Part shown: positions 1,431-13,224 of the stretch, in pieces
How the letters are laid out: each line of letters begins with the position of its first letter
How positions within the stretch are numbered: position 1 is the first letter of the stretch
IMG/VR virus record: IMGVR_UViG_2609459792_000001
Origin: a virus
Lineage: Duplodnaviria; Heunggongvirae; Uroviricota; Caudoviricetes
Length of the DNA stretch: 22,815 bases
Reading direction: 5' to 3' (one strand)
Notes under the pieces: model-generated
Database searches by the model: none
What the model saw: only the letters and a program-made list of their open reading frames with translations
What the model was told of the DNA's origin: nothing
Program-made: the position numbers and the translations under genes

Positions 1431-4880
<3,450 letters not shown>

Positions 4881-4940
4881 TCGTCATGCTCCATAAACGA
4901 CAAAACCGCCCGGAGGCGGTTTCACATAAAACATTTTGCA

Positions 4941-5597
4941 TCAGCGACCAATCACCACAACCTGACCACCATCCCCTTCGTCTGCCGTGCTGATCTCCTG
5001 AGAAACCACCCGTGACCCCACGCGCATTTCACCGTACAGAACAGGCAGAACATTGCCCTGGGCAACCATGTTATCCAGTGAGGAAAAATAGGTGTTCTGT
5101 TTGCCGTTATCCGTTGTCTGTGTGCGGGGAGTTCTGGCTTTCGGTGCCAGCATCTGCGCCACACCGCCAAGTATCATACTGGCACCGAGAGAAAACAGAT
5201 ACCGGTATACACGCCGCAATGGCTGCCCCCCAGCTGCAAGGGTTCCGGCATATAGCAACCGCAATGACGGCCGCCCCCAGCACAACCTGAAACACACCGC
5301 CACTTTTGGCCCCGGCAGACGCGGCACGATATGGATCACGGCACCATTTGCCAGCGGCTCATTAAGACGGGCAGATAATTCGGTTTCACCTGCATCACGC
5401 CCGGCAATGCGTACCTGATACCAGCCGTCGCTCAGTTTCTGACGAAACGCCGGGAGCTGTGTGGCCAGCGCCCGGATGGCTTCGGCCCCCGTTTTCACAC
5501 GAAGGTCGATGCGGCGGCCAAATCGTTGCAAATCCCCGTAAAGGCAGATGCGTGCCATGCCCGGTGACGCCAGAGGGAGTGTGTGCGTCGCTGCCAT
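4941..5597 (-). CDS. I: Tail tip assembly protein I (internally frame-scrambled but open)
   Basis: 218-aa ORF with lambda gpI-like N-terminus (MAATHTLPLASPGMARICLYGDLQRFGRRIDLRV...) and C-terminus (...VLPVLYGEMRVGSRVVSQEISTADEGDGGQVVVIGR). Overlaps the K 3' end by 103 nt, exactly as in lambda. The middle segment (about 5150..5320) reads as out-of-frame Arg-rich sequence while the Gly/Ala-rich hydrophobic segment is in another frame (ORF 5107..5295). Confidence 0.8.
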   Translation of the reverse strand: MAATHTLPLASPGMARICLYGDLQRFGRRIDLRVKTGAEAIRALATQLPAFRQKLSDGWYQVRIAGRDAGETELSARLNEPLANGAVIHIVPRLPGPKVAVCFRLCWGRPSLRLLYAGTLAAGGQPLRRVYRYLFSLGASMILGGVAQMLAPKARTPRTQTTDNGKQNTYFSSLDNMVAQGNVLPVLYGEMRVGSRVVSQEISTADEGDGGQVVVIGR

Positions 5598-6237
5598 TTG
5601 TCGGTATACCTCTCTCGTTTGCTCAGTTGTTCAGGAATATGGTGCAGCAGCTCGCCGTCACCACAGTAAATGGCGGCATGATTCGGCACCGATGAACCAA
5701 AACAGCACAGCAGCACATCGCCCGGCTGCGCCGCTGACAACGGCACCTGATACAGCCCTGTGGCCTCCAGATTATCCAGATAGAGATTCTGACCGTGACG
5801 CCACCAGTCATCCTCGCGATGAAAATCCGGCATCTCAATCCCCGCCAGATGGTAAGCATCCCGGAACAGCGTGTAACAGTCCGTCACCCCGTGCTCAAAG
5901 CGCCGCCCGGTGAGATGCGGCACACAGCGGAATTTATGAATCGTCCCCCGGCAGACCAGCCACCACGGCAAATCACTCTGCACCTGCAGCCGCCGGTCGG
6001 CCTCACTCAGCCAGGGCAGACCACCGGGGTGGCTGTGGACCAGCGCCACAATCTCACCCTGCATTTCTGCCTCAGCCAGTCCTCCGGCGACATACGGAAA
6101 TACGCCTCCGGCTCACCGGAGATATTCACGCAGGGAAAATATCTTTCCCCCTCCGGCGTGCTCACCACGAAGCCGCACGACTCCGCTGGCGCACATCGCC
6201 GGGCGTGCGCCAGAATCGCTGATTCTGTCTCTGTCAT
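5495..6237 (-). pseudogene. K: Tail tip assembly protein K (JAB/MPN + NlpC/P60 peptidase), frameshifted near the 5' end
   Basis: C-terminal ORF 5495..6064 (189 aa, MQGEIVALVHSHPGGLPWLSEAD... with JAMM HxH..S..D and NlpC/P60 Cys/His). An upstream ORF 6007..6237 in a different frame (MTETESAILAHARRCAPAESCGFVVSTPEGERYFPCVNISGEPEAYFRMSPEDW...) starts 6 nt after L. The frames are offset by one nucleotide near 6070; the lambda-type start MSPEDWL (ATG 6093) is in the upstream frame. Confidence 0.75.
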
Positions 6238-6242
6238 GGGAT

Positions 6243-6941
6243 TTACTGCGAAAGTTTGTTAATGGAAAGGAAGCCGCCAAAGTTGCCGACGTTATTGCGA
6301 AACTTACAGCCACTCAGGCATTTGCTGCATTTATCCTTCGTGATATCGGACGTTGTCTGGTCATATTCATCCGCGACCGCCGGACCGTGATAACCGCACT
6401 CATCGCCGCGATAGGTCCAGGTGCAGGTGTTGGCCAGCATGATACGTCCCGGAAAAACAGCGCCATCTGTTTCCGTCGGCGTGGACAGTACAAAGGAGGC
6501 ACTCACCGCGCTCAGTTCGCTGCACTGCTCGATGCGCCAGCGGCTGATCACCTCCTGCTCCGGATCGGCGTCACTGTTTCCGTTGACGAAGTTCACCGCA
6601 TCCAGAAAACGGGCATAAACCTTACGCCTGACCACCGTTCCGCCGACCAGACTCTGCAGATCTTCCGCCATCCCGGTGACCATGCCATACAGGTTAGAAA
6701 CCGTCAGCGTGGGGCGCGTACTGGTGCCTTTGCCATTCAGTTCGAAACCACTCCCCTGAATGGGATACGCCTGATACTGTCGCCCCTGCCAGGTGACCGG
6801 CTCACCTTTTTCGTTCTGCTCATTACAGAAAAAATAACGTTCTCCACCGACCTCTGTCAGGTCGATTTCCCATAGCACCACGCTGGCCGACTGCTCCGCA
6901 CGGGTGCATTCATTCAGTGTTTCCTGCCGGATATCCTGCAT
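6243..6941 (-). CDS. L: Tail tip protein L
   Basis: 232-aa ORF, lambda gpL length; ATG shares one base with the M stop codon (TGATG) at 6941, as in lambda. Confidence 0.93.
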   Translation of the reverse strand: MQDIRQETLNECTRAEQSASVVLWEIDLTEVGGERYFFCNEQNEKGEPVTWQGRQYQAYPIQGSGFELNGKGTSTRPTLTVSNLYGMVTGMAEDLQSLVGGTVVRRKVYARFLDAVNFVNGNSDADPEQEVISRWRIEQCSELSAVSASFVLSTPTETDGAVFPGRIMLANTCTWTYRGDECGYHGPAVADEYDQTTSDITKDKCSKCLSGCKFRNNVGNFGGFLSINKLSQ

Positions 6942-7270
6942 CAGTTCACCACCTGTTCAAACTCTGCGCTGAACTCAACACGCAACATACTGACCCGCGA
7001 CGACCATTTTGCGCAGGTCACCTTTATCTGCCGCCACTCATAAGGCGGCGTCCACAGAAAGGCTTTCCAGCCCCCGTGCTCTTCCAGAAACGACTCCAGT
7101 ACCGTGGCCTCCTCACGGGGGACAGAAAGCGTCACGCTGTACGTTTTCAGGTTGGCATTCAGCCCGGCAGGCGCTCGCTGAGAATAGCCATCACCAAAGC
7201 GCACCTTTCTTACAGAAGGGACCGAAGCCACATCCATACCGGGTTTCACTTTCCAGCGGAAGGTCTTCAT
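6941..7270 (-). CDS. M: Tail tip protein M
   Basis: 109-aa ORF, lambda gpM length; ATGA overlap with the H stop. Confidence 0.93.
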   Translation of the reverse strand: MKTFRWKVKPGMDVASVPSVRKVRFGDGYSQRAPAGLNANLKTYSVTLSVPREEATVLESFLEEHGGWKAFLWTPPYEWRQIKVTCAKWSSRVSMLRVEFSAEFEQVVN

Positions 7271-9846
7271 CGTCCACCTCCGGAGAACAGGCCACCATCA
7301 CGCATCTGTGTCTGAATTTCATCACGGGCACCCTTGCGGGCCATGTCATACACCGCCTTCAGAGCAGCCGGACCTATCTGCCCGTTCGTGCCGTCGTTGT
7401 TAATCACCACATGGTTATTCTGCTCAAACGTCCCGGACGCCTGCGACCGGCTGTCTGCCATGCTGCCCGGTGTACCGACATAACCGCCGGTGGCATAGCC
7501 GCGCATCAGCCGGTAAAGATTCCCCACGCCAATCCGGCTGGTTGCCTCCTTCGTGAAGACAAACTCACCACGGTGAACAATCCCCGCTGGCTCATATTTG
7601 CCGCCGGTTCCCGTAAATCCTCCGGTTGCAAAATGGAATTTCGCCGCAGCGGCCTGAATGGCTGTACCGCCTGACGCGGATGCGCCGCCACCAACAGCCC
7701 CGCCAATGGCGCTGCCGATACTCCCGACAATCCCCACCATTGCCTGCTTAAGCAGAATTTCTGTCATCATGGACAGCACGGAACGGGTGAAGCTGCGCCA
7801 GTTCTGCTCACTGCCGGTCAGCATCGCCGCCATATTCTGTGCAATACCATCAAAGGTCTGCGTGGCTGCACTTTTTACCTGCGACATACTGTCCGTGGCG
7901 CTCTCTTCCCACTCACTCCAGCCGGACTTCAGGCCTGCCATCCAGTTCCCGCGAAGCTGGTCTTCAGCCGCCCAGGTCTTTTTCTGCTCTGACATGACGT
8001 TATTCAGCGCCAGCGGATTATCGCCATACTGTTCCTTCAGGCGCTGTTCCGTGGCTTCCCGTTCTGCCTGCCGGTCAGTCAGCCCCCGGCTTTTCGCATC
8101 AATGGCGGCCCATTTTGCCCGTTGCTGCTGTGCGAATTTATCCGCCTGCTGCGCCAGCGCGTTCAGGCGCTCCTGATACGTAACCTTGTCGCCAAGTGCA
8201 GCCAGCTGGCGTTTGTACTCCAGCGTCTCATCTTTATGCGCCAGCAGGGATTTCTCCTGTGCAGACAGCTGGCGACGTTGCGCCGCCTCCTCCAGTACCG
8301 CGAACTGACTCTCCGCCTTCCACAAATCCCGGCGCTGCTGGCTGATTTTCTCATTCGCTCCGGCATGCTTCTCCAGCGTCCGGAGTTCTGCCTGAAGCGT
8401 CAGCAGGGCAGCATGAGCACTGTCTTCCTGACGATCGCCCGCAGACACCTTCACGCCGGACTGTTTCGGCTTTTTCAGCGTCGCTTCATAATCCTTTTTC
8501 GCCGCCGCCATCAGCGTGTTGTAATCCGCCTGCAGGATTTTCCCGTCTTTCAGTGCCTTGTTCAGTTCTTCCTGACGGGCGGTATATTTCTCCAGCGGCG
8601 TCTGCAGCCGTTCGTAAGCCTTCTGCGCCTCTTCGGTATATTTCAGCCGTGATGCCTCAGACTCGGCCCAGTCCTTTGCTGCCATCTCTCTGGCCTTTTC
8701 AAGATCGGCCTGCAACGTGGCGGCTGAAAGCCCAAGTTGCGCATTCGCTCTGTCCTCCCATGCTCCCCGGAGATTGGCAAGAAATGCTGAGGTTTTACCG
8801 CGCCGGTGGCTCCGGCTCTGATACCACTGCCATTTTTTGTCCGCCTCATCAAAAGCCTTTTCTGCTTTCTCCAGCATTCCCTGGGCAGTGTCCGGGCGAC
8901 CAATATCCAGCACCGAATCCCACATGGATTTGAATGCCCGTGCTGTCCTGTCTGCCCAGGTCTCCAGCGTGCCCATGTTCTCTTTCAGGCGGCGGGTCTG
9001 GTCATCAAACCCTTTCGTTGCGGCCTCGTTCGCCGCCTGCAATGCCCCGGCTTCATCTCCGGAACGCTGCAACTGAGCAACATACGCAATCTGCTCCGCC
9101 GTCACGTTATGGAACTGACGTGCCATCGCTGTCAGTCCCGACGTCGGGTCTGTGGTCAGCTTCCCGAAGGCTTCAGCGACCTTGTCCACCTCCACGCCGG
9201 ATGCAGAGGAGAAACGCGCCACACTCTGGCTGATCGCCTCAAACTGCTCACCACCACGCACACCGGCATTCACCAGCGCCGTCAGTGACTCGCTGGTCTG
9301 GTTAAACGTCAGCCCTGCCGCCTGCCCGGCTCTGGACAGGACCAGCATACGATCTGCCGTCAGTCCCGCCTGATTGCCGGAAAGGACCAGCGTTTTGTTG
9401 AAATCGGACAGGGTTGAGTTGCCCTGATACCAGGCATACGCCAGCGCACCGGTCGCCACCGCCAGCGAGGTGGCCCCCACCATCGGCAGGGTGATCGCAC
9501 CGGCAAGCCCCCTGAACATGGGGATCATCCCGCCGAAGGAGTCCTTAACCTGACCCCCCTGTTGCAGCAGGATCAGCCACGGGCTTTGCCCGCCTGCAAG
9601 CTGCGTGGCCACGTCGGTGAACTGTGCAGGCAGCATACGCATGGCGGCTTTATACTGCCCGACGGAAATCCCCGCTTTCTGTGCAGCCAGCGCCTGTCGG
9701 CTCAGCGACTGTTCAACGACTGCCGCTGTTTTTTTCGCATCAGTTTCCGTACCGGAAAAATGACGCCTGACTCTGGCCATCTGCTCGTCAAATCTGGCCG
9801 CATCCAGACTTAAATCAACGACCAGATCGCCTACCGGTTCAGCCAT
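7267..9846 (-). CDS. H: Tail length tape measure protein H
   Basis: 859-aa ORF starting MAEPVGDLVVDLSLDAARFDEQMARVRRHF, with long coiled-coil central part and Gly-rich C-terminal region; overlaps the T stop by 8 nt as in lambda. About 6 aa longer than my recollection of lambda gpH. Confidence 0.93.
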   Translation of the reverse strand: MAEPVGDLVVDLSLDAARFDEQMARVRRHFSGTETDAKKTAAVVEQSLSRQALAAQKAGISVGQYKAAMRMLPAQFTDVATQLAGGQSPWLILLQQGGQVKDSFGGMIPMFRGLAGAITLPMVGATSLAVATGALAYAWYQGNSTLSDFNKTLVLSGNQAGLTADRMLVLSRAGQAAGLTFNQTSESLTALVNAGVRGGEQFEAISQSVARFSSASGVEVDKVAEAFGKLTTDPTSGLTAMARQFHNVTAEQIAYVAQLQRSGDEAGALQAANEAATKGFDDQTRRLKENMGTLETWADRTARAFKSMWDSVLDIGRPDTAQGMLEKAEKAFDEADKKWQWYQSRSHRRGKTSAFLANLRGAWEDRANAQLGLSAATLQADLEKAREMAAKDWAESEASRLKYTEEAQKAYERLQTPLEKYTARQEELNKALKDGKILQADYNTLMAAAKKDYEATLKKPKQSGVKVSAGDRQEDSAHAALLTLQAELRTLEKHAGANEKISQQRRDLWKAESQFAVLEEAAQRRQLSAQEKSLLAHKDETLEYKRQLAALGDKVTYQERLNALAQQADKFAQQQRAKWAAIDAKSRGLTDRQAEREATEQRLKEQYGDNPLALNNVMSEQKKTWAAEDQLRGNWMAGLKSGWSEWEESATDSMSQVKSAATQTFDGIAQNMAAMLTGSEQNWRSFTRSVLSMMTEILLKQAMVGIVGSIGSAIGGAVGGGASASGGTAIQAAAAKFHFATGGFTGTGGKYEPAGIVHRGEFVFTKEATSRIGVGNLYRLMRGYATGGYVGTPGSMADSRSQASGTFEQNNHVVINNDGTNGQIGPAALKAVYDMARKGARDEIQTQMRDGGLFSGGGR

Positions 9847-12787: not shown

Positions 12788-13183
12788 TTATTGCATTCTG
12801 GCCAGGCCGCGCTCTGTCATTTCAGCTGCCACACCGGCAGAGACACGGAACGCCGTTCCCGGCAGCACAAATGCCACAGCCTCATCCCGCGTGGCGTGAA
12901 GTGCATCAGTATGCAGCGTCACCAGTGCCACAACCGTGACCAGATCAGCCGTATCAGTCACGGTATCCGGCTGCGCTGATACAACCTCATTTTCATGTCC
13001 GGTCAGCACATTTTCCGGGCTGAGAGGGGTATCCTGATCGGCAGTGTCGCCCGTGTCATCAAGCTCTTCTTCCAGCTCTGCCACACGGAGCGCCAGTTCT
13101 TCTTTCGTCCCCGTCAGGCTGATATCACGGTTCAGTTGTTCACCCAGCGAGCGGAGACGGGCAATCAGTTCATCTTTCGTCAT
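12788..13183 (-). CDS. FI: DNA packaging protein FI
   Basis: 131 aa from ATG 13183 (MTKDELIARLRSLGEQLNRD...), GGAGGAG Shine-Dalgarno immediately upstream; 41-nt gap after E as in lambda. The ORF-track start at 13222 overlaps the E stop and lacks a ribosome-binding site. Confidence 0.9.
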   Translation of the reverse strand: MTKDELIARLRSLGEQLNRDISLTGTKEELALRVAELEEELDDTGDTADQDTPLSPENVLTGHENEVVSAQPDTVTDTADLVTVVALVTLHTDALHATRDEAVAFVLPGTAFRVSAGVAAEMTERGLARMQ

Positions 13184-13224
13184 GGACTCCTCCACAGAGA
13201 AACAATGGCCCCGAAGGGCCATGA

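Follow-up and report, generated by a model that had tools for sequence, protein, structure and literature searches.

The scrambled middle of the gene I homologue described here is very probably a consensus or assembly artefact of a draft contig and not a biological feature, judging from a comparison with natural alleles of the tail genes involved. The middle of the gene consists of a patchwork of allele types, the adjacent genes K and J have lost bases, nearly all at sites where natural alleles differ, and the aberrant haplotype is found in one assembly. The window, by which we mean the whole stretch of 22,815 bp that was analyzed, makes up the entire contig JNRJ01000050.1 of the draft Escherichia coli assembly GCA_000704625.1.

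Gene context and features

The window holds a module of lambda-like morphogenesis genes on the minus strand, with the terminase genes at one end and J, lom and the beginning of stf at the other. The tail genes follow the order L, K (JAB plus NlpC/P60), I, J, lom, so that K, I and J are neighbors as in lambda. The features that are relevant to the analysis are collected in Table 1. The I ORF that starts at the lambda-like ATG shares 103 nt with the end of K (5495-5597). In the public annotation of the contig the start of I was placed at an internal codon, and the deposited product is therefore the 185-aa protein P0001, 'bacteriophage lambda tail assembly I family protein [Escherichia coli 2-427-07_S1_C3]'. 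Among the complete genomes used for comparison, H, L, K or J is annotated as frameshifted or internally stopped in NZ_LR883006.1 (L001), EC93 (L008) and NCCP 15734 (L012), which may reflect either real decay or errors of long-read assembly. The record of phage Kati (L005) carries a deposited 1.5-kb plus-strand 'hypothetical protein' at 6112-7608, over K and L on the opposite strand, and this seems to be a misannotation.

Table 1. Features of the window on contig JNRJ01000050.1, with the evidence by which they were delineated
Feature	Position	Strand	Evidence
Gene I ORF, homologue of the lambda tail-tip assembly protein I, 218 aa	4941..5597	minus	ORF list; PF06805; allele comparison
Scrambled middle of gene I, fine-scale patchwork of types A (lambda/Kati), B (213 aa) and C (215 aa)	5198..5317	minus	column-by-column allele support
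Junction 1, one base lost between CGTCT and GCC; natural text leaves frame 1 and continues in frame 3	5316..5317	minus	B and C have G, A has C at this site
Junction 2, B-type patch GCGGTTGCTATA abutting A-type TGCCGGA; natural text back to frame 1	5250..5259	minus	allele alignment
Junction 3, GCAGC followed by TGGGGGG, the A seen in natural GCAGCATGGGGGG being absent; natural text shifts out of frame 1 into frame 3	5232..5233	minus	B and C gapped in the same column
Junction 4, GCGGCGTGTATACCG followed by GTATCTG, -5 gap relative to allele A, mixed A/B support	5198..5215	minus	allele alignment; three-frame translation
Alternative-frame ORF, 62 aa, carrying the displaced natural text FQVVLGAAVIAVAI...WGAAIAA	5107..5295	minus	ORF list; three-frame translation
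Gene J, encoding the tip attachment protein; interrupted, with ORFs of 687, 135 and 166 aa	1431..4880	minus	ORF list; alignment to E. coli GE3
Gene K, JAB/MPN plus NlpC/P60 tail protein; present as two ORFs of 76 and 189 aa	5495..6237	minus	ORF list; allele comparison

Intact ends and displaced middle of gene I

Both ends of the gene I product are intact. Residues 14-96 match the Lambda_tail_I domain (PF06805) with 82.9 bits against a cut-off of 23.8, and the C-terminal third (GGVAQMLAPK...GGQVVVIGR) is identical or nearly identical to that of natural alleles. In total, the first ~93 and the last ~85 residues are essentially the same as in natural alleles. At the nucleotide level, natural alleles account for positions 1-255 and 450-657 of the gene, leaving 0 and 1 odd columns, respectively.

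The situation between these ends is different. There, the product reads LPGPKVAVCFRLCWGRPSLRLLYAGTLAAGGQPLRRVYRY, the annotated middle running as ...IVPRLPGPKVAVCFRLCWGRPSLRLLYAGTLAAGGQPLRRVYRYLFSLGASMILGG, and residues ~94-133 represent out-of-frame text. Five natural in-frame types of the middle could be discerned, namely the lambda-like type A (223 aa), type B (213 aa), type C (215 aa), type D (216 aa), which is a B/A hybrid with a single switch, and type E (225 aa). A Gly/Ala-rich hydrophobic segment is common to all of them and is lacking from the annotated frame of the window. The first-pass annotation, which had described an I ORF with lambda-like ends and an Arg/Cys-rich middle, is borne out by the residue counts, as the middle contains 7 Arg plus Lys and 2 Cys residues in the window versus 1 and 0 in six natural alleles. 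It also asked for a hydrophobicity comparison, and indeed the mean Kyte-Doolittle hydropathy of the middle is lower in the window (0.51) than in the natural alleles (1.26-1.49).

The expected hydrophobic text had been noticed in another reading frame, and three-frame translation recovers it there. Frame 3 yields AGAKSGGVFQVVLGAAVIAVAI and WGAAIAA, frame 1 yields AGTLAA and LFSLGASMILGG, and frame 2 yields YTGI. The alternative-frame ORF that carries part of this text translates as (V)FQVVLGAAVIAVAICRNPCSWGAAIAACIPVSVF and is a by-product, not a gene. The reverse relation holds for allele B, where the +1 frame of KSGGVFQAVLGAA gives KVAVCFRLCWGR, which matches the scrambled text of the window.

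The gene resembles that of lambda in its location between K and J and in its overlap with the end of K; it differs in that the hydrophobic middle of natural types A to E is absent from the annotated frame. The difference in length with lambda gpI given in the first-pass annotation proved accurate, since the lambda-type protein counts 223 aa and that of the window is 5 aa shorter. The way in which this difference arises, however, is not through about five single-nucleotide indels, as was originally proposed. Aligned to the lambda-type allele A, the middle shows gaps of -1, -5, -3, -1 and -5 nt, 15 nt in total, which are located at the junctions between allele patches, and it is this series that produces both the frame path 1-3-1-3-1 and the shortfall of 5 aa. 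The alternation of frames with a net in-frame result was thus read correctly, but the frame was not 'restored' by any special means: no more than ~23 and ~11 codons are out of frame, and natural alleles read out of frame over such short distances contain few stops, so that an ORF that stays open is unremarkable. The open state of ORF I is a matter of chance.

Allele types in the middle of gene I

Nearly every base and every gap within the middle of gene I is backed by type A, B or C, yet the supporting type flips every few bases and the changes of frame are found at the junctions between patches of different type. The first event, at junction 1, is a dropout at a site where the alleles carry either G or C. 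The other four gaps relative to allele A (-5 GGATC, -3 GCC, -1 A and -5 ACCGG) are shared with B and/or C. The GGATC gap is identical to junction 2 and is followed by the in-frame GCC gap between 5243 and 5244, and at junction 4 the natural text is found in frame 2 (YTGI) before it resumes in frame 1 (LFSLGASM).

The extent of the mixing was quantified with a minimal copying model. For positions 255-450 of the gene this model required 8 switches and left 14 columns unexplained, given a panel that was confined to a small set of A, B and C alleles, while the remainder of the gene required 0 switches with 0-1 odd columns and natural control alleles required 0-1 switches. The fine-scale alternation of allele-specific bases is therefore present in the middle of the gene, and the pattern is far beyond chance. 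A model with two alleles only, the A-type of Kati and the C-type of N1286, failed to reproduce the middle, which implies that a third type (B) is needed, and even then the 14 columns are not accounted for.

Programmed frameshifting or recoding was considered and dropped, as four frame changes within 120 bp, with allele-specific patches in between, fit no such mechanism and all natural alleles use a single frame.

Considering that the ORF is open and that both conserved domains are intact, one could argue that the middle is a real mosaic allele, generated by recombination between prophage alleles and encoding a gpI with an altered, Arg/Cys-rich linker. Natural hybrids are indeed known. The 216-aa type (P0003, P0049), like the window, joins blocks of different allele types within the variable middle, but it does so via one in-frame switch from B to A by which the hydrophobic character of the segment is kept. 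The window would need 8 switches, plus the unexplained columns, within ~200 bp, its junctions are out of register, and the Gly/Ala-rich hydrophobic segment of all types is destroyed. Moreover, J and K on the same contig show the dropouts at SNP sites that are described below, and no independent genome with the allele was encountered in the protein collection, the 5,426 E. coli genomes or IMG/VR. A real mosaic allele is for these reasons extremely unlikely. A related reading takes the contig as correct and holds that out-of-register gene-conversion tracts from sister prophages turned the hydrophobic middle into the Arg/Cys-rich linker. We consider this highly improbable; if it were true, the open ORF would constitute a natural test of the need for the hydrophobic segment of gpI.

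Products of the B/A-hybrid type were recovered under several protein identifiers (P0003, P0049 and P0122). Odd middles were also observed in other singleton gene I products from public drafts and metagenomes (P0123, P0121, P0002, P0074, P0178 and P0197). P0123, which stems from E. coli p0305293.14, is chimeric between B and C, and the others carry internal duplications or short in-frame deletions. These singletons may be assembly artefacts of a like kind in a multi-copy prophage gene.

Base dropouts in genes J and K

The 3' region of gene J, on the same contig, was compared with its nearest natural relatives. These are found in E. coli GE3 and six others; they show 98.1% identity to the window and count 1,600 nt where the window has 1,570 nt. 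A deletion-only alignment of the region 1431-3000 to GE3 contained 0 mismatches. Its 27 gap events remove 30 nt from the window, and nothing is inserted. The 27 dropouts, of one to three bases each, all lie at 1973-2851. Their positions are anything but arbitrary: 24 of the 27 fall on sites that are polymorphic among the six other natural alleles, whereas 10,000 permutations gave an expectation of 2.75 +/- 1.6 with a maximum of 10. Likewise, 14 of the 17 differences between E18005 and GE3 coincide exactly with the position of a dropout. Over the codon positions 3, 1 and 2 the dropouts were distributed as 14, 9 and 8, and given that the excess at the third position is only weak, these counts were not used as evidence.

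The split of gene K into the ORFs 6007-6237 and 5495-6064 is the result of one missing base near 6070-6073, within the JAB/MPN domain. The site is a hypervariable codon that reads AGT, CAG or CGG in natural alleles. Thus, like in J, the K defect sits at a natural difference between copies.

Relative to phage Kati the unpaired indels of the contig cluster at 1973-2851 (the 3' part of J), 5198-5393 (gene I) and 6070 (K), and the remaining 16 kb contained no unpaired indel in this comparison. Compensated -1/+1 pairs were observed at 3297/3302 (J) and 13149/13155 (the gene at 12788-13222), and there is an extra A at 4928 in the spacer between I and J. Both natural variation and additional noise in the consensus may account for them.

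A straightforward reading of broken tail genes is that of a prophage in genuine decay, in which real frameshift mutations in K, I and J have accumulated within the host chromosome. It is common for E. coli to harbor defective lambdoid prophages whose tail genes contain frameshifts, the complete genomes that were fetched include annotated cases in H, L, K or J, and the fact that three adjacent genes are affected would agree with it as well. A frameshifted pseudogene should display an ordinary mutational spectrum and be inherited by relatives, however, and what we found were deletions only, located at SNP sites, in a sequence shared by no other genome in the collections searched. The loss of 30 bases with zero substitutions or insertions over 1.5 kb of J corresponds to no mutational spectrum, and mutation has no reason to target the natural inter-allele differences on which 24 of the 27 events lie. 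Together with the absence of unpaired indels from the other 16 kb and the restriction of the haplotype to one draft contig, this makes decay very unlikely.

The same data bear on random errors in base calling or homopolymer length within a stretch of low coverage, which would involve no mixture of alleles. Such errors might explain that the events in J are clustered and are all deletions, as some platforms tend to give. Nevertheless, 17 of the 27 events are outside runs of identical bases, the preference for polymorphic sites is left without explanation, and what is seen in gene I are switches among allele-specific bases, which goes beyond the mere loss of bases. Errors of this sort are accordingly very improbable as the source of the pattern.

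Occurrence of the haplotype

A homologue that aligns colinearly with the annotated 218-aa middle had been put forward as the observation that would speak against a scrambled frame. A search of a collection of 5.8 billion proteins retrieved the scrambled middle in a sole protein, the one encoded by JNRJ01000050.1 itself (1 member, 1 contig), and all other gene I protein matches had one of the few natural in-frame types of middle. When the 116-aa segment was reconstructed by de-scrambling and used as a query, no protein above 85% identity was obtained, and hence the middle is not a single natural allele with a few indels.

The nucleotide searches agree with this. The 5,426 complete E. coli genomes that were searched contain more than 11,000 copies of gene I, and the best match among them was 90.9% for the 66-nt piece at 5251-5316 and 88% for the 91-nt piece at 5160-5250. 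None of the four junction sequences of gene I occurs in IMG/VR (2.9 million viral contigs), and scans of metagenome and genome collections for exact matches to the junction 20-mers gave 3 matches, all by chance and in unrelated GC-rich DNA. As a control for junction 3 we fetched 80 IMG/VR loci, all of which were A-type with 99-100% identity and which served for this single purpose; the A that is missing from the window was retained in 78 of these 80, and also in L003 and L005 (phage Kati). The aberrant haplotype is thus confined to one assembly.

Proposed origin of the patchwork

We propose that the patchwork and the dropouts were caused by a mixture of reads from different prophage copies combined with a consensus step that favored gaps. 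A consensus of two mixed alleles is favored on the ground that mutation does not drop one base per inter-allele SNP while sparing everything else. In this scenario, at least two lambda-like prophages would have been present in the sequenced DNA, one of them perhaps contributed by a second strain. They would have been close relatives, with tail genes that were nearly identical save for a few variable patches, and the assembler would have collapsed the copies into a single contig. At single-base differences the read alignment may have given each of the two bases a half-gapped column of its own, of which the consensus then kept neither, resulting in a dropout of one base. Where the alleles diverge in sequence and also in length, a case in point being the hypervariable hydrophobic middle of gene I, the same procedure would have given a column-wise patchwork of alleles with junctions out of codon register. 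After such merging ORF I would have stayed open by luck, and K and J would not.

Considering the fact that the dropouts are confined to ~1970-6075, this scenario requires that elsewhere on the contig the copies did not differ or escaped merging, which would be plausible for mosaic prophages.

Consensus errors that stem from the collapse of repeats, or the merging of paralogues, form a known class in draft genome assemblies. Judged by its sequence signature, the case presented here would belong to this class in that one contig appears to stand for several near-identical prophage copies. Its particular traits are that the defects are limited to natural differences between copies, that dropped bases are combined with chimeric patches, and that one assembly is concerned. 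A study on similarly sourced isolates employed Illumina 100-bp reads and the MaSuRCA assembler (PMC6060285), but since the strain of GCA_000704625.1 is absent from the list in that paper, platform and assembler were not used as evidence. Taken together, the alternatives to a consensus artefact that were discussed in the preceding sections remain improbable.

Implications

The practical value of the analysis lies in quality control and it reveals no new biology. The record of JNRJ01000050.1 carries consensus errors, which affect the 185-aa 'lambda tail assembly I family protein' as well as the truncated products of K and J, and in this way singleton chimeric proteins enter the protein databases, where they pose as natural variants. 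Two traits could be used to flag similar errors in drafts, to wit dropouts that coincide precisely with SNPs between alleles while substitutions are absent, and out-of-register allele patchworks within the variable patches of multi-copy prophage genes.
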